IMG/VR virus record: IMGVR_UViG_2778261394_000008
Location: 1 to 39,391 of that record
DNA: 39,391 nucleotides
DNA from: a virus
Lineage: Duplodnaviria; Heunggongvirae; Uroviricota; Caudoviricetes
Reading direction: 5' to 3' (one strand)
The translations under genes were made by a program, and so were the position numbers. A model generated the notes under the pieces. That model saw nothing but the letters and a program-made list of their open reading frames with translations, had not been told where the DNA came from and searched no databases. Every line of letters starts with the position of its first letter. Position 1 is the stretch's first letter. Of this stretch, positions 2,493-23,070 are shown piece by piece.

Positions 2493-3320
2493 TTATTTAA
2501 TCTGGATAAATGGTGTATTGGCACCACTGGTCATGTATTGCGGCAGTGTACCGTTCCACTTGTTGATGGCTTCCAGCTCCATGACGCCTGGGTTCTGGCG
2601 CAGAGCTTCACCGCGTAAACGAATAGCATCGGCTTCTGCCTGGGCTTTTGTTCGAATGGCATCAGCCTGTCCGGCAGCTTCCGCACGTAGCATGTTGGCC
2701 TCCGCTTCACGTTGCTTGACTTCCTGTTCGCGCTGCAGGGTTTTCTGGTTTGCCGTGACTTTGGCGTTAATGCTGTCGATAACGGTTGGAGGGTATTCCG
2801 GTTTACCTACATAAGAGAGGCTCATTACCTGAATGCCGATGGGTGTCATCTCTTCCTGAATGTCTTTAAGTGCGGCATCCAGTAGTTCAGACTTGCCGCC
2901 GTCGATAAATTTGTCAGTGGTCATTTTGCTGGCCAGCCGATTGAGTGCGTCGGCAATTTTCTGGCGCAGGTCAGTGTCGGTAATGTCATCCACGCCTTTG
3001 CGGTAGGTCTGAAACACCGTGGTAACTTTGGATGGATCAACTTTGTAGGCCACACCGATGTGATAGCCGATGGTTGTACCGTCACTCATCTGGAAACTGA
3101 ACGGTTCATCGTAGGTCTTCATTTGTTTGAAGGTGGGGAAGATATAAACTTCAGTATTCCAGCCAGTCCAGTAGCGACCAACACCGACCACCTCACCGAC
3201 GCCTTTGTCGTCGCCCAGTTTATTTACCTTGATGCCAACATTACCTGGTTCAACGCGATCGCAACCGACAAGGCCAATTGTCGGCAGAACAATGGCTAAA
3301 GCAAAAATAATTTTTTTCAT
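2493..3320 (-). CDS. SPFH/band-7 (stomatin/prohibitin-like) lipoprotein
   Basis: 275 aa; N-terminal signal peptide with lipobox (TIGLVGC); central domain consistent with SPFH/band-7; Ala/Gln/Glu-rich C-terminal coiled-coil region (QREAEANMLRAEAAGQADAIRTKAQAEADAIRLRGEA); start codon overlaps the stop of the upstream small membrane ORF (ATGA at 3317-3320). Confidence 0.8.
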   Translation of the reverse strand: MKKIIFALAIVLPTIGLVGCDRVEPGNVGIKVNKLGDDKGVGEVVGVGRYWTGWNTEVYIFPTFKQMKTYDEPFSFQMSDGTTIGYHIGVAYKVDPSKVTTVFQTYRKGVDDITDTDLRQKIADALNRLASKMTTDKFIDGGKSELLDAALKDIQEEMTPIGIQVMSLSYVGKPEYPPTVIDSINAKVTANQKTLQREQEVKQREAEANMLRAEAAGQADAIRTKAQAEADAIRLRGEALRQNPGVMELEAINKWNGTLPQYMTSGANTPFIQIK

Positions 3321-14325: not shown

Positions 14326-15432
14326 TTAGAACTGGTATACCATACCTACAGCAACGATATCGTCAGTGTTTACACCAAGAGCTTTAGTAAAGTCATTTTT
14401 GTCAAGCAGGTTGATTTTGTAATCAACGAAGGTAGACATATTTTTGTTGAAATAATAAGTTGCGCCAACATCAACATATTTGACTAAATCCTGGTCACCA
14501 AAAATGCCAAGATCTTTACCTTTTGATTGCAGATAAGCAACAGACGGACGCAGACCGAAATCGAACTGATATTGTGCAACAGCTTCGAAGTTTTGTGCTT
14601 TATTAGCCACAAAGTAATCTGCGAATTTAGTCATATTCTGGGTTTCTGAATAGGTTGTTGCCAGATAAACGTTGTTTGCGTCGTATTTCAGACCTGCAGC
14701 CCAGACTTCTGCATTTTCGCCGGAAGCAAATACTCCTGGGAGAAGTTTACCCAATTTGACTTGAGTGTCGGTACGATCAGATTTCGCATACGTTGCACCA
14801 ATGCCGAAACCTTCGTATTCATAGGTCGCAGAGAAACCAAAACCATCGCCATTGCCTTTGGTGTAGTTATCTAAGCTACTACGATCATGATTATTCTTAC
14901 CCTGGTACTGTGCAGCAAAATTCAGACCATCAACCAGACCAAAGAAGTCGTTGTTACGATAAGTTGCAACACCAGTGGTGCGACCAGTCATGAATACATC
15001 TGTTTGGGTCCAGGTATCTCCACCGAATTCTGGCAGAACGTCAGTCCATGCACCGATATCGTATGCTACACCGTAGTTACGACCGTAATCGACGGAGCCG
15101 TAGTCACCGAATTTAAGCCCTGCAAATGCAAGACGGGTTTTATCTTTGGCTGCTCCCTGTTCTTCAGTACGGTTTCCTTTGAATTCATATTCCCACTGAC
15201 CGAAACCAGTCAGTTGATCGTTGATCTGAGTTTCGCCTTTGAAACCCAGACGAGCATAAGTTGTGTCGCCATCATTTGCATCGTTAGAGGAGAAGTAGTG
15301 CTTAGCATTAACTTTTCCGTACAGATCCAACTTGTTGCTGTCTTTATTATAAATCTCTGCTGCCTGAGCAGACATCGCCATCAGTACTGATGCAGCCACA
15401 GCAGAAATTGCCACCGTTAATTTTTTCATCAC
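14326..15432 (-). CDS. nmpC: OmpC/OmpF-family general porin (NmpC/Lc-type prophage porin)
   Basis: 368 aa; signal peptide ending [10 protein letters not shown]; porin signatures throughout and C-terminal aromatic residue (VYQF); encoded antisense to the late operon between Q and the lysis genes. Confidence 0.9.
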
Positions 15433-17468: not shown

Positions 17469-17890
17469 CACAGGGTGTTAATACCACCGGAAAGGTCAGT
17501 GCTGACTTCCTGGTGATCAGTTTGTTGATTCAGTAATAACCGGTCAGCAGTGTGATTCCGGAAGTCAGCATTTTATGTGTGAGGGTAATTTCTGCTACCC
17601 GCACTGGTAAACAAATGAGGCATATCGTTTCAGCACTGGCGAGTTTCGCGGAGAACAGGTTTTGCAAGCGCCTTTGTCGTTCTTCATTCTGTAATATCTG
17701 ACTGATTACAGTTTCGGTGCTGTTTTTTACATTGTTAACGTTGTGTATCATCGGATGGTTTTTATCAGAATGAGTCGCTGCCTGTTTCGGGGTCTGTGAT
17801 TCGTCAGAATTACGTTGCAGGCTGACGAATCATTCTGGTAGTAACCATACAATTAAACGCTGTCTAATTCTTATACGATGAATGCTTTGG

Positions 17891-17917
17891 GCCCGTCTCA
17901 TGACGGGCATTTTTTTA
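17891..17917 (+). terminator. Rho-independent terminator
   Basis: gcccgtc-tcat-gacgggc followed by attttttta. Confidence 0.7.
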
Positions 17918-18013
17918 TCCGTGCGCAATGCCTGTTCTGTTATGGCATTTTTCATCTTTTCCCGGTTGGCTATTATTATGGTTTATTTTTCTGTATACAG
18001 GAGAATTGAGACT

Positions 18014-18505
18014 GTGATCACATATGCAGACATTCGGGAAAAGCAGGCTGAAATTCAGGAGGCCAGACAGGAGTACATCCAGCGACTGCGGGATATGGCA
18101 AAAAGGCTGGTCAAGACCTATGAAGACTCACTGGCATTGCCGAAACCACGATGGCTGGATATTGACGGTAACTCCCATCCCTATGTTTATCTTTCTCATG
18201 ATAGTTGTTGTGAGAAACCGGAGGATTTGCAGGTAGATTTTCAGGATGGGGTTACTTTTAATTTATATACGGTTGTTGATGATGATCCCCGCCAGTCTGT
18301 AAGTGTGAATATTACAGTGAGTATTCTGTTACTTGATGGCGACAACATGACGATTTCGGTTGATGGTTATCAGGCCAGGACATTTTCGCATGTGGATACC
18401 AACGCAAAAATTAATGAAGTGTGCGAATACATTAAAGACAGCATACTTATGTCAATGAATGAAGTGACGTTTGGCAAAAAATCCCTTTCAGAAGTGAAAG
18501 GGTAA
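18014..18505 (+). CDS. Hypothetical protein (163 aa), moron-like unit
   Basis: GTG at 18014 preceded by AGGAGA SD (9-nt spacing); the longer track ORF from 17882 would include the terminator hairpin; bracketed by intrinsic terminators. Confidence 0.45.
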   Translation: MITYADIREKQAEIQEARQEYIQRLRDMAKRLVKTYEDSLALPKPRWLDIDGNSHPYVYLSHDSCCEKPEDLQVDFQDGVTFNLYTVVDDDPRQSVSVNITVSILLLDGDNMTISVDGYQARTFSHVDTNAKINEVCEYIKDSILMSMNEVTFGKKSLSEVKG

Positions 18506-18565: not shown

Positions 18566-18702
18566 CATATCTGCGCCACGCCCGGCGCACATCAAAAAAC
18601 CACAGAGCCTTTCAGGGGGGAGCTTACGGGATGGTCAGTGTGACTTTCTCTGTGGGCTGCTCATCCCGGGGCGAGGCTCACCCACTAAAAGGAAAAGTCA
18701 CG

Positions 18703-19128
18703 ATGTTTGGTATTTTCAAAAAGAAAACCCGTAAGGCTATTACTGAAGTGAAGAAAATGGAGAACCGCGACGCGGTGGAGGCGACCGTCTGGGGCGCGTA
18801 TTCCATTGCATACGCTGACGACACCTGTGACGCGAAAGAAATTGCGGTACTGGAGAAAACCATTGCAGCACTTCCTGCCTTTGCGCCGTTCTCCGGTGAG
18901 ATTGCCCAGATGAGCGCGAATATCCGCGCCCGTTATGAAGCATCGCCTCGTAGTGCGAATGCTCAGGCTTTGCGAGAACTGGCTGATGTGGCAGGAACCG
19001 CCGAAGCGGTTGATGTGCTGTGCCTGTGTCTGGATATTGCAGACCAGGATGGCATTGGTCCGGATGAAGAAGCACAGCTCAAGAAAATTGCGCAGGCGCT
19101 GCAGTTGCCGCTGGAGCAGTACCTGTGA
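18703..19128 (+). CDS. TerB-like (tellurite-resistance TerB family) protein
   Basis: 141 aa from ATG at 18703 (AGGAAA SD); overall pattern resembles TerB, with two acidic D..D/E segments (AYADDTCDAKE and DIADQDGIGPDEEAQ); assignment from recollection. Confidence 0.55.
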   Translation: MFGIFKKKTRKAITEVKKMENRDAVEATVWGAYSIAYADDTCDAKEIAVLEKTIAALPAFAPFSGEIAQMSANIRARYEASPRSANAQALRELADVAGTAEAVDVLCLCLDIADQDGIGPDEEAQLKKIAQALQLPLEQYL

Positions 19129-19277
19129 AAAGTGCGCGCCTTGTGCTGGCTGCCATCCTGCTGTTTCTGGTAGTGGCAGTGGATTTTACCGGACGGCTGA
19201 TGTCGGTGCTGGCTGATGGCGTGCTGGTGGCGATGGTGATGGTCGTTCTCTGGCCTTTACTGCACAAATATGAATAA
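19125..19277 (+). CDS. Small hydrophobic membrane peptide (50 aa)
   Basis: GTG start overlapping the TerB-like stop (GTGA); almost entirely hydrophobic (LVLAAILLFLVVAVDF...VLVAMVMVVLWPLL). Confidence 0.4.
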   Translation: MKSARLVLAAILLFLVVAVDFTGRLMSVLADGVLVAMVMVVLWPLLHKYE

Positions 19278-19325
19278 CACCAAACAAAAGGCATCTGCGG
19301 GTACCTTTGACAGGGTGTTTTTTAC

Positions 19326-19349
19326 GGGCCGCTGGTGGCCCTTTTTATT
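19326..19349 (+). terminator. Short GC hairpin plus U-tract immediately upstream of the holin gene
   Basis: gggcc-gctggt-ggccc followed by tttttatt. Confidence 0.4.
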
Positions 19350-19364
19350 GACAGGAGAAAAAGT

Positions 19365-19754
19365 ATGTCTGAACCCTTATCCGGTTCCGGCACGGCTGCG
19401 GCGCTCGGTGGGGCGACGGTATTCGGGCTGTTTACCGGAACGGATTTCGGGATTGTGTTTGGTGCATTCGCAGGGGCGCTGTTTGTGGCCACGATACCAC
19501 AGAAGATTTCTGTCTGGCGTGTGGCAGCGCATTTTCTGGTGTCGTTCATTGTTGGCGTGCTGGGGGCGGATGTGATGGCGTCTTACCTGGTTGAAAAACT
19601 GAATCTCCACAGCACATCTCTCGACGCGCTTTGCGCGGTACTGGTATCGGTGGTGTCGGTGAAGATTCTCTCATTCATCCACCAGCAGGATATCGCATCG
19701 CTGGTATCCGGGCTGTTCTCCCGTCTGCGGGGTGGAGGCGGTAATGTTAAGTAA
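19365..19754 (+). CDS. Holin-like membrane protein (lysis cassette gene 1)
   Basis: 129 aa from ATG at 19365 (AGGAGA SD); multiple predicted TM segments; directly upstream of the endolysin. Confidence 0.6.
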   Translation: MSEPLSGSGTAAALGGATVFGLFTGTDFGIVFGAFAGALFVATIPQKISVWRVAAHFLVSFIVGVLGADVMASYLVEKLNLHSTSLDALCAVLVSVVSVKILSFIHQQDIASLVSGLFSRLRGGGGNVK

Positions 19755-20022
19755 CCTTCCCGGATTACTGAATGTGGTGTTAAGCACGGTTATCGTGCTG
19801 ACGCTCTTTTTTTATCGTCGTGGTGAGTCGAGACATAAACCGCTGATGTCGTGGCTGGCCTGGCTGCTGATGCTGCTTTATGCCTTTGCGCCGCTTTGTT
19901 ATCTGTGTGGTCGCTTTCCACCCGGTAACTGGCTGGTCGTCCTGATTAACCTGGTGTTCTGCGTGCTGGTGATACGAGCACGCGGGAACGTATCAAAAAT
20001 CCTTGTATTACGAAGGCGCTGA
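19744..20022 (+). CDS. Second holin/antiholin-like membrane protein
   Basis: 92 aa from ATG at 19744 (GGAGG SD); hydrophobic with a basic C-terminus. Confidence 0.5.
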   Translation: MLSNLPGLLNVVLSTVIVLTLFFYRRGESRHKPLMSWLAWLLMLLYAFAPLCYLCGRFPPGNWLVVLINLVFCVLVIRARGNVSKILVLRRR

Positions 20023-20023
20023 T

Positions 20024-20569
20024 ATGAAGTCGAAAGATGAAATTTTTGACGAAATTCTGGGAAAAGAGGGCGGTTACGTCAATCACCCGGATGATAAAGG
20101 TGGTCCGACTAAATGGGGCATCACTGAAAAAGTTGCCCGTGCACACGGTTATCAGGGCGATATGCGTGACCTGACGCGTGGGCAGGCGCTGGAAATACTC
20201 GAGGCGGACTACTGGTACGGACCACGATTCGACCAGGTTGAGGACCTGTCTCCTGATATTGCCGCAGAGTTGTGCGATACGGGCGTGAACATGGGGCCAA
20301 CTGTGGCGTCCAGAATGCTTCAGCGCTGGCTGAACGTTTTCAACCTGCGCGGGAAACTCTATCCGGATATGGATGCAGATGGACGCATCGGGCCGCGTAC
20401 TCTTAATGCATTACGGGCATATCTGAAAAATCGCAGCAGGGATGGTGAACTGGTACTGGTGAAAGCCCTGAACTGTACGCAGGGCGAGCGTTATCTGGAG
20501 CTGGCAGAGAAACGCGAGGCCAATGAGTCGTTTGTCTATGGCTGGATGAAAGAGCGCGTGGTGGTTTAA
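20024..20569 (+). CDS. Endolysin, glycoside hydrolase family 108 with C-terminal peptidoglycan-binding domain
   Basis: 181 aa; N-terminal GH108 signature (EGGYVNHPDDKGGPTKWGIT). Confidence 0.85.
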   Translation: MKSKDEIFDEILGKEGGYVNHPDDKGGPTKWGITEKVARAHGYQGDMRDLTRGQALEILEADYWYGPRFDQVEDLSPDIAAELCDTGVNMGPTVASRMLQRWLNVFNLRGKLYPDMDADGRIGPRTLNALRAYLKNRSRDGELVLVKALNCTQGERYLELAEKREANESFVYGWMKERVVV

Positions 20570-20665
20570 AAACTGACACTGAAGTGCTGAACACCCTCAA
20601 CTCATGCAGGCTCTTTTCTGGGGCTACGATGAGCGAAAGTAAGGGGCATAGCATCAGATAGCAAA

Positions 20666-20700
20666 AACCCCGGCTGCGGTAACAGTCCGGGGTTTTCTGT
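20666..20700 (+). terminator. Rho-independent terminator downstream of the endolysin
   Basis: Stem aaccccgg/ccggggtt (8 bp), 13-nt loop, T-rich tail. Confidence 0.6.
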
Positions 20701-20729
20701 TTCTGGCCCTGGGTAAGGCAAAGGAGAAC

Positions 20730-20912
20730 ATGAGGAAGTATAAACTAATTCTGTTGAGGTTGACTATGAAAAACGGCCTTGAATTGAAAGCGCCTGTAAC
20801 TGATGACATCAGCAGAGCGGTGGCTTTTGCCATTAAGTGGGGGGCGGTCGGTATCGCTGTGTCTCCGATGCTGTATGGGATGGCAAAATTGATCATTGCT
20901 GTGAAATCGTAA
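20730..20912 (+). CDS. Hypothetical small protein (60 aa) with hydrophobic C-terminal half
   Basis: AAGGAG SD 5 nt upstream of ATG. Confidence 0.4.
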   Translation: MRKYKLILLRLTMKNGLELKAPVTDDISRAVAFAIKWGAVGIAVSPMLYGMAKLIIAVKS

Positions 20913-20929
20913 GTGGGGCAGGGGTAAAT

Positions 20930-21064
20930 ATGTCAGATAGCATTATAAAACTGGCGCGAATTCTCTGTGTGGTTGTTGGCCTTTCATTTTCAGCAATGTT
21001 GGTTGCCATTTTCATTTCCACCGCCTGGCGAGTATTGAGCTTATCCGGATTGATTGGTGGATAG
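20930..21064 (+). CDS. Small single-TM membrane peptide (44 aa)
   Basis: Internal ATG of track ORF 20837-21064; hydrophobic core ILCVVVGLSFSAMLVAIFISTAW. Confidence 0.35.
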   Translation: MSDSIIKLARILCVVVGLSFSAMLVAIFISTAWRVLSLSGLIGG

Positions 21065-21068
21065 TGAG

Positions 21069-21251
21069 ATGAAGCGAAAACACTGGACACACAGAATGCC
21101 GCGAACGGCGGCGAAATGGGCACTGGTAGCGATACTGGTGCCTTTTTTCCTGGTGGGATGCGTCAGCCTGGATAAGGCGCGCCAGCTTTTCGATACAGCT
21201 TCTCAGGTCTGTGAAATTGTCGACGGTGTTCGGCAGTGTATGCAGAACTGA
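21069..21251 (+). CDS. Small lipoprotein (60-aa precursor; lipobox FLVGC; three Cys in the mature part)
   Basis: Signal peptide with lipobox; ATG at 21069. Confidence 0.45.
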   Translation: MKRKHWTHRMPRTAAKWALVAILVPFFLVGCVSLDKARQLFDTASQVCEIVDGVRQCMQN

Positions 21252-21338
21252 TCGCCTGTAAGAGCAGAATATTGTTGAATCTAAATTTACTTTGAACAGT
21301 GGCCCGGATGGAAAGGGCATCTAAATAGGAGCAGAAAA

Positions 21339-21548
21339 ATGTTAACTGTAAAAGTCATGTCTCAAAATGGTGGGGAAGAGATCCATTGCGGGCGTAGCAT
21401 TGGCTATCATCCTGAGCAGCGGAGTATTGCCGTATCGGGAAAGGATGGGAAAGTCATTCTGAAAGATGGAGATATTGCTTATGTAATGAACCAAAACGCT
21501 CAAATAATATCTGTTTATCGGCCCAATAATAGTCAGAAAAACATTTGA
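21339..21548 (+). CDS. Hypothetical small protein (69 aa)
   Basis: AGGAG SD upstream of ATG. Confidence 0.5.
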   Translation: MLTVKVMSQNGGEEIHCGRSIGYHPEQRSIAVSGKDGKVILKDGDIAYVMNQNAQIISVYRPNNSQKNI

Positions 21549-21671
21549 ATTTCGCAAGGCCAAAGTTCAGTGGTGATCGTTATCAACTAATTGAAATAAC
21601 AAGCTTATGTTTGTGTAATTGGTGATATAGCATGTTAATGCTGAATATCAGCGTCAACATGGAGTTATACA

Positions 21672-21887
21672 ATGGTTTTTAAACACTATTACGTGAACAA
21701 AAATGCTCAGAGCAATGGCGATCATGAGGTGCATGCTGAGGAATGTTCATATCTTCCTGCTGTAGCTAACCGCGATTACCTTGGTTACTATAGTGATTGT
21801 TCTTCGGCGGTAACAGAGGCAAAGGCCAAAGGATATTCCCGGGTGAATGGTTGCTATTGGTGTGCCAATAAGTGCCACACGTCTTAA
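21672..21887 (+). CDS. Hypothetical Cys/His-rich small protein (71 aa)
   Basis: GGAG SD; motif GCYWCANKCH near the C-terminus; followed by a strong terminator. Confidence 0.5.
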   Translation: MVFKHYYVNKNAQSNGDHEVHAEECSYLPAVANRDYLGYYSDCSSAVTEAKAKGYSRVNGCYWCANKCHTS

Positions 21888-21909
21888 TCAATTGTCAATA
21901 AACCATAAA

Positions 21910-21929
21910 GGCCGCTCTGCGGCCTTTTT
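21910..21929 (+). terminator. Rho-independent terminator
   Basis: ggccgc-tct-gcggcc followed by ttttt, 23 nt after the stop of the 71-aa gene. Confidence 0.7.
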
Positions 21930-21949
21930 CATGTTAAAAAAGATTGCGG

Positions 21950-21988
21950 CATTACAGCAGCCCTTCACTCTAAGGGGCTGCTGTAATG
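21950..21988. other. Long perfect hairpin (13-14 bp stem attacagcagccc/gggctgctgtaat, 11-nt loop)
   Basis: Read directly from the sequence; on the minus strand it is followed by a T6 run after a 7-nt spacer. Confidence 0.5.
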
Positions 21989-21994
21989 TGAGAA

Positions 21995-22025
21995 ATAAAA
22001 AACCGGTCCAGCTACACAGAACCGG
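21995..22025 (-). terminator. Minus-strand terminator-like hairpin plus U-tract
   Basis: On the minus strand: ccggt-(13-nt loop)-accgg followed by ttttttattt. Confidence 0.4.
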
Positions 22026-22117
22026 CCGGCGAAGACCGCCAATACCACCCATGCATTGATGCAACATACTAATGACAATAGCCGCTATTGATGTAAATGC
22101 AATGTTATGCATCGACG

Positions 22118-22161
22118 AAAATAAAAAACCGGCAGGGGAAATCCATTGAAGATTTGCCGGT
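22118..22161 (-). terminator. Minus-strand rho-independent terminator
   Basis: On the minus strand: stem accggca/tgccggt with internal loop, followed by ttttttatttt. Confidence 0.5.
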
Positions 22162-22324
22162 GGCAAAAGAGGGCCATGCTTTTAACCTTAGTCGCAGAGT
22201 TACGGAGTGCAACAACGACCGTCGCCGTTATCTTGCTGAAAGGCGTTTCAATGATTTTCATCAATTTATTCATCAGCAATGGTGATAATCACTCTCATTT
22301 GTGCGGGTCCTTCCGGTGGGGTGG

Positions 22325-22500
22325 CCTGCCACGGGGCGGCAGCGGCGCGGATTTTCGCTATTTATGAAAATTTTTCGGGAAAAAGCGTGTCGGTACTTCT
22401 CGTGTATAACTCATTGTTTTTTCATCAATCACATCCGTAAAAGGTCCGACATGAAAGTGCCCGAAAAAGACGTTTTTGAGCACTTCCATGTCGGACCCTG
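22325..22500. promoter_or_regulatory. cos site (cosN plus cosB-like region) upstream of the small terminase gene
   Basis: acggggcggcagcggcgcggattttcgctatttatgaaaattttt closely matches the lambda cosN/cosB-proximal sequence as I recall it (acggggcggcgacctcgcgggttttcgctatttatgaaaatttt); an 18-bp inverted repeat lies at 22443-22460 / 22480-22497. Confidence 0.7.
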
Positions 22501-22521
22501 CATTTGATATGGAAATGTTTT

Positions 22522-23070
22522 ATGAAGGTTAATAAAAAGAAGCTCGCGGAAATTTTCAACGTGGATCCACGAACGATTGAACGCTGGCAGTCTCAGGGGC
22601 TCTCTTGTGTCTCTGGTGGTAGTAAGGGGGTTGAATCTGTATTTGATACCGCCATGGCAATTCAGTGGTATGCGCAGCGCGAAGCCGATATTGAAAACGA
22701 AAAACTCCGCAAAGAGACCGAGGATTTGCGTGCGGCTGCGGAATCAGATTTACAACCCGGCACCATTGACTATGAGCGCTACCGACTCACAAAAGCACAG
22801 GCTGATGCACAGGAACTGAAAAATGCCCGCGAAGAAGGGCTGGTACTGGAAACGGAATTGTTTACCTTCATTCTGCAACGTGTGGCACAGGAGATTTCGG
22901 GGATACTTGTACGTGTGCCGCTGACATTACAGCGTAAATATCCGGATATTTCACCGTCACACCTTGATGTGGTGAAAACTGAAATCGCAAAAGCCTCCAA
23001 CGTTGCAGCTAAAGCTGGTGAGAACGTAGGCGGGTGGATTGATGATTTCAGACGCACAGAAGGCAGCTAA
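22522..23070 (+). CDS. Nu1: Terminase small subunit (lambda Nu1-like)
   Basis: 182 aa starting [12 protein letters not shown]; recalled strong similarity to lambda gpNu1 including the N-terminal winged HTH. Confidence 0.9.

Follow-up and report, generated by a model that had tools for sequence, protein, structure and literature searches.

Background

In phage lambda the spanin genes Rz/Rz1 directly follow the endolysin gene, and Rz1 is a small outer-membrane lipoprotein with a mature part of 40 aa and a conserved periplasmic Cys. Unimolecular spanins such as gp11 of phage T1 put one gene in place of Rz/Rz1. They carry an N-terminal lipoprotein signal, a C-terminal transmembrane domain (TMD) and ~100 periplasmic residues, and were first recognised by an argument of positional replacement. 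Here we analyzed a stretch of 39,391 nucleotides (IMG/VR virus record IMGVR_UViG_2778261394_000008, positions 1 to 39,391; referred to as the window) in which three short open reading frames, named ORF1, ORF2 and ORF3, are located behind the endolysin gene. The main subject is ORF3, the gene of a short lipoprotein which is found in the place of Rz/Rz1.

Small proteins acting on the outer membrane are also known from other systems. Colicin lysis lipoproteins, with mature parts of 27-35 residues, render the outer membrane permeable and need no inner-membrane partner for this; the signal peptide is important for their function. To our knowledge, the only spanin alternative demonstrated so far is the disruptin of phage phiKT. 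This cationic, non-lipidated protein (gp28) is a single small protein that substitutes for spanins (bioRxiv 10.1101/515445). About 13% of the phages of Gram-negative hosts are without a recognisable spanin (Kongari 2018, PMC6139136). In the same catalogue phage phiP27 was filed as a 'separated' two-component spanin, and its pair is the shortest one listed, with 62 periplasmic residues combined (PMC6139136).

ORF3 as a positional alternative to Rz/Rz1

Synteny and the exclusive occupation of one slot show that ORF3 belongs to the lysis module throughout and, by position, is an alternative to Rz/Rz1. The lysis genes and the three ORFs of the window are:

19335..19754 (+), holin-like gene 1, Phage_holin_8 (PF16931, 4.8e-22; phrog_198, holin; PGAP start 19365)
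19732..20022 (+), holin-like gene 2, Phage_holin_3_7 (PF05449, 9.4e-21; phrog_217; PGAP start 19744)
20003..20569 (+), endolysin, GH108 and PG_binding_3 (PF05838 and PF09374, ~1e-26; PGAP start 20024)
20730..20912 (+), ORF1, 60 aa (phrog_1115, 6e-40; alternative start M13 at 20766, giving 48 aa)
20930..21064 (+), ORF2, 44-aa single-pass membrane peptide (phrog_4906, 1.6e-19)
21069..21251 (+), ORF3, 60-aa prolipoprotein (phrog_7528, 3.8e-38)
21069-21158 (+), signal peptide of ORF3, followed by the codon of the lipid-modified Cys31 (21159-21161) and a mature peptide of 30 residues

The cluster lies between the end of the GH108 endolysin gene (20569) and Nu1 (22504), with gaps of 17 nt between ORF1 and ORF2 and 4 nt between ORF2 and ORF3. 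All three ORFs are real genes, each under purifying selection: the ratio of non-synonymous to synonymous polymorphism (pN/pS) was 0.41, 0.11 and 0.25 in the frames of ORF1, ORF2 and ORF3, respectively, against values of 0.6-1.8 for the two remaining forward frames. The window represents a lambdoid E. coli prophage which shares 99.8% identity over 19300-22600 with a prophage beside potB of strain EC11. There, RefSeq PGAP annotates the identical three coding sequences, each as 'hypothetical protein'. A first-pass annotation made from the letters of the window had described three small membrane or lipoprotein ORFs at 20730-21251; they are present as described, with PGAP coding sequences, matches to PHROG families of unknown function and pN/pS in support, and all three are conserved as coding sequence in relatives. 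The identical run ORF1-ORF2-ORF3 was found in Cronobacter. Scans against Pfam, NCBIfam and PADLOC gave no significant match for any of the three, and none of them had a match to the Bor or Cor family. The cluster consists of two separate units, ORF3 on the one hand and the pair ORF1+ORF2 on the other.

Two sets of IMG/VR loci were compared. The first comprised 80 loci selected by ORF3; 70 ORF3 loci were catalogued. As the converse test, a second set of 80 loci was selected by the holin3_7 protein alone. A scan of genome contigs returned only 3 loci. Each of the 80 ORF3-selected loci carried holin8, holin3_7 and an endolysin upstream of ORF3, the endolysin being either GH108 or an unrelated M15 peptidase. 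The packaging modules downstream of ORF3 varied as well (Nu1, HNH/Terminase_4 or Terminase_6). In Lelliottia, ORF3 stands behind GH108 although the holin differs. ORF1/ORF2 were lacking in 25 of the 70 catalogued loci, and there ORF3 came directly after the endolysin. In such minimal cassettes it started 0-21 nt past the aligned end of the endolysin: in 24 loci 21 nt past the aligned end of M15, and in locus L055 and Yersinia with an ATG overlapping the GH108 stop (ATGA). Otherwise, the interval contained ORF1+ORF2, a diverged ORF1-like gene, a 93-aa ORF or a 90-aa ORF on the reverse strand.

No match to Rz was found in any of the ORF3-selected loci. Among the 80 holin3_7-selected loci the slot after the endolysin was occupied as follows:

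ORF3, no Rz: 68 loci
Rz with embedded Rz1, no ORF3: 5 loci
ORF3 and Rz both: 0 loci
neither ORF3 nor Rz: 3 loci
too short to tell: 4 loci

In locus L144, Rz with embedded Rz1 begins 15 nt past the M15 stop, which is the ORF3 slot of the sister cassettes. Remoter cassettes, namely those of mEp390 and of a Klebsiella phage with a GH108 endolysin of 66% identity, have canonical inner-membrane (i-) and outer-membrane (o-) spanins in this slot. Phage GER2 (L006) was considered as a carrier of both Rz and ORF3 and rejected, since its ORF3 copy is frameshifted and contains stop codons. An operon for the type II heat-labile enterotoxin (LT-II) is located directly 3' of holin-holin-GH108 in two prophages, SerU-LTIIb (L090, 4067-5493) and Rac-SA53 (L178, 3335-4565).

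Features of the ORF3 lipoprotein

The signal peptide of ORF3 consists of a basic n-region, a hydrophobic core of 14 residues and the lipobox L-V-G-C31, and represents the only hydrophobic segment of the protein (residues 14-32). The mature part extends from C31 to N60, with Cys at positions 31, 48 and 57. The first-pass annotation had read ORF3 as a lipoprotein precursor of 60 aa with a lipobox and three Cys, which was correct; its mature part comprises 30 residues, not 38. Within the 39-kb window no other small ORF has a lipobox.

The ORF3 family is small and confined to Enterobacterales. At 90% identity it forms 145 clusters, which come from E. coli, Salmonella, Citrobacter, Cronobacter and Yersinia; 23 representatives were found among 1.84 billion proteins. 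We aligned 14 members, obtained from the homolog search and from these representatives. G30, C31, C48 and C57 were invariant in all 14, down to about 31% identity. The mature length ranged from 28 to 41 residues and was about 30 in most members. The residue at position +2 was V, A, T, S, G or E and never Asp, therefore sorting to the outer membrane is predicted. Additionally, the signal peptide was unusually conserved, both in the n-region (H5, H8, R9, P11 and R12) and in the h-region. C48 and C57 suggest disulfide-linked oligomers or a small loop.

Plausible Shine-Dalgarno sequences had been noted ahead of all three ORFs. These are found as AAGGAG 5 nt upstream of the ORF1 ATG and as AGGGG 5 nt upstream of ORF2; the ATG of ORF3 follows the ORF2 stop after 4 nt, and this short distance suggests translational coupling of ORF2 and ORF3.

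ORF3 was present in 314 of 5426 complete E. coli genomes. One record labelled E. coli DH5alpha (NZ_CM135829.1) contains it with 96.7% identity. A prophage gene of this kind is unexpected in a K-12 derivative such as DH5alpha, and for this reason the record may be mislabelled.

The coding sequence of the signal peptide contains an additional element:

21118..21149 (+), terminator-like hairpin with T6 in ORF3 codons 18-27 (-18.4 kcal/mol, z score -3.8)

When the window was compared with Lelliottia, codons for the same amino acid were identical at 8 of 9 positions within the hairpin vs 5 of 21 elsewhere (Fisher p=0.0016), the sole changed hairpin codon being located in the loop. Hence the nucleotides of the hairpin appear to be conserved beyond coding needs. 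It is a speculative assumption that the hairpin acts as an intrinsic terminator which would limit full-length ORF3 mRNA to Q-antiterminated late transcription. Its run CCU UUU UUC includes the slippery-looking heptamer U UUU UUC.

The phiP27 entry and the search for an i-spanin partner

In phiP27 the catalogued o-spanin spans 20706-20861 and the i-spanin 20348-20542 (PMC6139136). The o-spanin call corresponds to a 51-aa form of the ORF3 homolog with 95% identity to ORF3. The i-spanin call uses a TTG start, gave no match in a PHROG search and is situated antisense to a 90-aa ORF of phrog_36812 (in the phiP27 locus L002, 2670-2864 (+) vs 2654-2926 (-)). It is carried by an insert that was present in only 4-5 catalogued loci and is missing from the window and most relatives. 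We therefore rejected this ORF as a conserved partner of ORF3, and for the same reasons, the antisense position and the rare insert, the two-component entry of phiP27 probably needs revision. Thus the catalogue had anticipated ORF3 in part, although the pairing it gives fails. The GenBank coding sequence L32 of phiP27 is in the wrong frame for the lipoprotein.

No conserved i-spanin candidate, i.e. a type II membrane protein, was found for ORF3 in the 80+80 loci or in the window. An i-spanin-like ORF of 207 aa, in which a coiled-coil-like region comes after an N-terminal TMD, is located upstream of TerB (17882-18505 (+)); it had no match in Pfam and was rejected as a hidden i-spanin because only 3 of 73 related loci contain it. 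Since the catalogued i-spanin is limited to an insert of few relatives, ORF3 is an o-spanin-like lipoprotein without a conserved partner. Of the features expected of an o-spanin it has the lipobox without Asp at +2, the site next to the endolysin in the lysis cassette and the periplasmic Cys (C48, C57); a nearby cognate i-spanin and sequence membership in the Rz1/o-spanin family are absent.

Proposed function of ORF3 and alternative explanations

Based on its place in the Rz/Rz1 slot, its fixed position as last gene of the cassette and the mutual exclusion with Rz/Rz1, ORF3 is most likely an outer-membrane-disruption component. Coding status, conservation of the family, the lipobox and Cys pattern, synteny and the exclusivity of the slot are established by the sequence data; for localisation, expression timing and mechanism we infer the following course. 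Both units would be transcribed along with the late lysis genes. The ORF3 product would be processed by Sec, Lgt and LspA and then sorted by Lol to the outer membrane, leaving a probably helical peptide of ~30 residues with two conserved Cys. After degradation of the wall by the endolysin, this peptide would break the outer membrane without a dedicated inner-membrane partner, probably by destabilising it from the inner leaflet, possibly as disulfide-linked oligomers.

Among the described systems, lambda Rz1 agrees with ORF3 in its small size, the lipid anchor, the periplasmic Cys and the location after the endolysin; the slot is the same, and in sister cassettes the two are mutually exclusive. 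In contrast, ORF3 has no i-spanin partner, no relation to Rz/Rz1 by sequence, PHROG or Pfam and no proline-rich region, and its 30 mature residues are predicted to be helical rather than unstructured. Unlike the 'separated two-component spanin' of phiP27 (PMC6139136), the ORF3 family represents an orphan lipoprotein. T1 gp11 is similar in that one gene with a lipoprotein signal replaces Rz/Rz1, but ORF3 has neither the C-terminal TMD nor the long periplasmic part of unimolecular spanins. The phiKT disruptin is likewise a single small substitute; unlike this cationic protein, mature ORF3 has a net charge of -1 and is lipid-anchored. The nearest functional analogues may be the colicin lysis lipoproteins (the bacteriocin release protein of pCloDF13 and Kil of ColE1), which are comparable in size and to which the unusually conserved signal peptide of ORF3 also invites comparison. 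However, Pfam Lysis_col gave no match to ORF3, the gene belongs to a phage lysis cassette and not to a colicin operon, and two extra conserved Cys are present.

We consider it rather probable that the model as a whole holds, with ORF3 as a partnerless outer-membrane disruptor and ORF1+ORF2 as a portable accessory membrane pair. Several observations weigh against it. With 30 residues, mature ORF3 is too short to bridge the periplasm and therefore should not act as a membrane-fusing bridge. It had no match in Pfam, NCBIfam or the spanin PHROGs at E<=1, so that the profile search for o- and i-spanin families proposed earlier remained negative, and the Bor, Cor, entericidin and colicin-lysis families of Pfam, NCBIfam and PHROG did not match either. 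A PDB profile search returned only noise and no solved structure. The AlphaFold2 model, one long helix, was weak (pLDDT 68) and was not used for a fold search. The hydrophobic moment of the mature part was not significantly above that of shuffled sequences (p about 0.07-0.5); an amphipathic helix is therefore not claimed. Furthermore, many of the IMG/VR loci are close relatives, so that the counts are higher than the number of independent events. Three holin3_7-selected loci contained neither ORF3 nor Rz, and in the two LT-II prophage records toxin genes take the slot of ORF3 and Rz/Rz1, therefore the slot also accepts cargo. Finally, ORF1/ORF2 are tied to lysis by position alone.

Three other explanations of ORF3 were weighed. 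It is unlikely that ORF3 forms the o-spanin half of a true two-component spanin whose unrecognised i-spanin would be a holin-like protein, ORF1/ORF2 or the unprocessed ORF3 precursor. The listing of phiP27 as a separated two-component spanin speaks for such a pair, as do the non-canonical topologies which Kongari et al. allow for i-spanins (PMC6139136) and the unusual conservation of the n- and h-regions of the signal peptide. But the published phiP27 i-spanin ORF, with its TTG start and antisense to a PHROG gene, is limited to 4-5 catalogued loci, and the only ORF of the window with a type II TMD and a coiled coil (17882-18505) to 3 of 73. Moreover, 25 ORF3 loci do without ORF1/ORF2, the holin type changes in Lelliottia, and selection was seen in none of the frames overlapping ORF3. 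A single non-canonical spanin set, to which ORF1/ORF2 would contribute the inner-membrane and ORF3 the outer-membrane component, would fit the operon-like spacing of 17 nt and 4 nt and the occurrence of the trio in Cronobacter. We regard it as highly improbable, given that ORF1/ORF2 assort independently of ORF3, stand upstream of an intact Rz/Rz1 in hundreds of genomes and have soluble parts far too short for bridging the periplasm.

In lambda, bor occupies the interval equivalent to the ORF3 site and co-exists with Rz/Rz1. Accordingly, ORF3 could be a moron lipoprotein resembling Bor, Cor or Llp. It would have no relation to lysis, would just be parked at a module junction and would act in superinfection exclusion or serum resistance. 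A Bor/Cor-like lipoprotein had also been among the suggestions of the first-pass annotation. The LT-II genes in the slot of SerU-LTIIb and Rac-SA53 and the frequency of ORF3 prophages in E. coli (314/5426 genomes) are in line with this explanation, which nonetheless seems quite unlikely to us: the family searches for Bor and Cor were negative, no promoter-like site precedes ORF3, and the gene overlaps the endolysin stop or starts 21 nt past the aligned M15 end. The terminator-like hairpin within ORF3 would block transcripts that are not antiterminated, and the strict exclusion of Rz/Rz1 is unlike lambda bor.

The ORF1/ORF2 module

ORF1 has a weakly hydrophobic TMD in its C-terminal half (residues 30-48, Kyte-Doolittle hydropathy 1.64) and ORF2 a strong one (residues 11-29, 2.81); the earlier description of a 60-aa protein with a hydrophobic C-terminal half and a 44-aa peptide with a single TMD was accurate. 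For ORF1, 103 homologs were found in Escherichia, Salmonella and relatives, all named hypothetical, and for ORF2 homologs in E. coli, E. albertii, Citrobacter and Cronobacter. Neither matched a holin family of Pfam, and the only PHROGs found (1115, 4493, 3246 and 4906) are of unknown function.

The pair was present in 692 of 5426 complete E. coli genomes (about 13%). In the inspected records, namely ST131, O104:H4 and the PhiR12 and PhiR5 phages, it is located between lysozyme and Rz, and most of the genome matches share the ~84% identity of these records. Given this predominant location beside Rz and the absence from 25 of 70 ORF3 loci, ORF1/ORF2 are not specific partners of ORF3. The non-canonical spanin once considered for all three ORFs thus narrows to ORF3, the gene in the spanin slot that excludes Rz/Rz1. 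A diverged ORF1-like gene (36-40% identical) stands alone directly before Rz in GER2 and before ORF3 in phiSTEC1575-Stx2k. Proteins combining an ORF2-like N-terminus with the C-terminal half of ORF1 (P0198, P0203 and others) were rejected as Rosetta-stone fusions and are regarded as recombination scars, because the junctions vary and P0207 reads the same DNA in another frame.

The pair may be described as a portable small inner-membrane unit with its own hairpin, which would insert between the endolysin and the following outer-membrane-disruption gene. It would serve a late accessory membrane function, for example as a lysis helper or a membrane toxin. In L135 (5093-5230) and GER2 (2630-2782) the start of Rz is overlapped by other small tail-anchored membrane ORFs, whose products end in ...IRWW. 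Unannotated small genes with a single TMD just 5' of the spanin seem to recur in lambdoid lysis cassettes.

A predicted antisense RNA at ORF1

Upstream of and within the start of ORF1 the following elements were found:

20663..20702, A5-hairpin-T-run, bidirectional terminator-like (-28.3 kcal/mol, z score -4.0)
20737..20766 (-), sigma-70-like promoter, TAGTCA-18-TATACT, in the first codons of ORF1 and pointing at the hairpin
about 20731 down to 20660 (-), antisense RNA of ~70 nt predicted from the promoter-like site and the hairpin, covering Shine-Dalgarno sequence and ATG of ORF1

A hairpin was located 5' of every ORF1 or ORF1-like copy examined, with differing sequences of the inner stem, and this type of hairpin was missing where ORF3 abuts the endolysin. 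The minus-strand site is the sole promoter-like match near ORF1 in the window. PhiR12_3 has a promoter-like site at the same place, and the ORF1-like gene of phiSTEC1575-Stx2k has TGGACA-18-TATACT (10/12); each is the sole match in the scanned homologous stretch. The predicted RNA folds into a single-stranded 5' end carrying the anti-Shine-Dalgarno sequence and the terminator hairpin. An Rfam scan of 20400-22600 gave nothing above the gathering score; the match to P22 sar was sub-threshold (23.2 bits vs a gathering score of 43), with an identical loop, CUGUUACCGCAG. An Ant gene (P22_AR_N) in locus L136 was considered as an explanation of the sar-like hairpin and rejected, as no sar match was found there. 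In some cassettes this P22-antirepressor-like gene (L136, 4877-5446) is situated between the M15 endolysin and ORF2/Rz. Locus L138 carries an insertion at this site, with two large ORFs of 390 and 265 aa that had no identification.

The separate upstream hairpin and the conserved antisense promoter of the pair suggest that ORF1/ORF2 are controlled by a small antisense RNA; together with the terminator it would probably silence them in the lysogen. The layout resembles type I toxin-antitoxin or sar-ant control, a lead rather than a finding. ORF1 (60 or 48 aa) and ORF2 (44 aa), with one TMD each, are of the size of type I toxins. In hokW-sokW of prophage Sp5, HokW aids phage release (PMC8621323). 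The locus shares with hokW-sokW and P22 sar-ant the small membrane protein, the lambdoid prophage and a cis-antisense RNA over the ribosome-binding site, which for ORF1 is only predicted; it differs in the lack of a Hok family match and in the sub-threshold sar score.

It is possible, though doubtful, that ORF1 (with ORF2) forms a type I toxin-antitoxin-like module with a layout like that of P22 sar, in which the cis-antisense RNA of ~70 nt would block translation of a small membrane toxin; freed from this block on induction, the toxin would help lysis, as with hokW-sokW in Sp5. In favour of it, the minus-strand promoter-like site stands alone near ORF1, recurs in three diverged versions and faces a bidirectional terminator, so the 'small membrane toxins' of the first-pass annotation receive some support for ORF1/ORF2. 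The free anti-Shine-Dalgarno end of the predicted RNA, the sar-like loop, the hydrophobic proteins of under 60 aa and the hokW-sokW precedent (PMC8621323) point the same way. However, the promoter is a mere consensus match (9-10 of 12) within coding sequence, the Rfam score is far under the gathering score, and a true start at M13 (20766) would leave its ribosome-binding site outside the RNA. Furthermore, neither PADLOC nor any known toxin family gave a match.

Other features of the window

Two further conserved small ORFs are located between ORF3 and cos, 21339-21548 (+) (phrog_3909, 69 aa) and 21672-21887 (+) (phrog_4298, 71 aa), the latter with a Cys-rich C-terminus. They are followed by a bidirectional terminator-like hairpin (21907-21927). 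The motif GCAGAATATT(T/G)T(T)GCTGAA(A)AATG was found 3' of the last lysis gene in unrelated cassettes, e.g. after the ORF3 stop in the window (~21262-21285) and after R in L001 (~2386-2410). The GCAGAATATT motif may be a module-boundary recombination sequence.

Morons near the late region are located at ~14326-15429 (-), 18631-19128 and 19125-19277 (window coordinates taken over from the L004 annotation). An OmpC-like porin gene lies on the reverse strand after Q. Other morons of the prophage are a DNA methyltransferase, a TerB-family gene and a DUF3927 peptide; a RelE/ParE pair and Lom are present as well. No tRNA genes were found in the window.

Conclusions

ORF3 is an orphan, very short lipoprotein of predicted outer-membrane location and a variation on the spanin theme, and ORF1/ORF2 are a separate, widespread and uncharacterised module. 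Tentatively, and with somewhat less than even confidence, ORF3 may stand for a further class of disruptors next to the two-component spanins, the unimolecular spanins and the cationic disruptin: a stand-alone, lipid-anchored substitute for Rz/Rz1 of ~30 residues which would not bridge the periplasm and would be fail-safed by a terminator, with ORF1/ORF2 as an antisense-controlled toxin module apart from it.

A single holin-endolysin cassette that carries either Rz/Rz1 or a 60-codon lipoprotein gene constitutes a natural experiment in tractable E. coli, and the phages with the ORF3 cassette include Stx2e and Stx2k phages. In about 700 complete E. coli genomes, among them ST131 and O104:H4, the ORF1/ORF2 pair is without annotation, and it may constitute a new membrane-protein module regulated by antisense RNA. 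Should ORF3 by itself be sufficient to disrupt the outer membrane, bridging of the periplasm would not be required and a minimal permeabilising lipopeptide would be at hand. In that case the 'two-component spanin' entry of phiP27 would be corrected, and a gene called 'hypothetical' in hundreds of genomes would receive a name.

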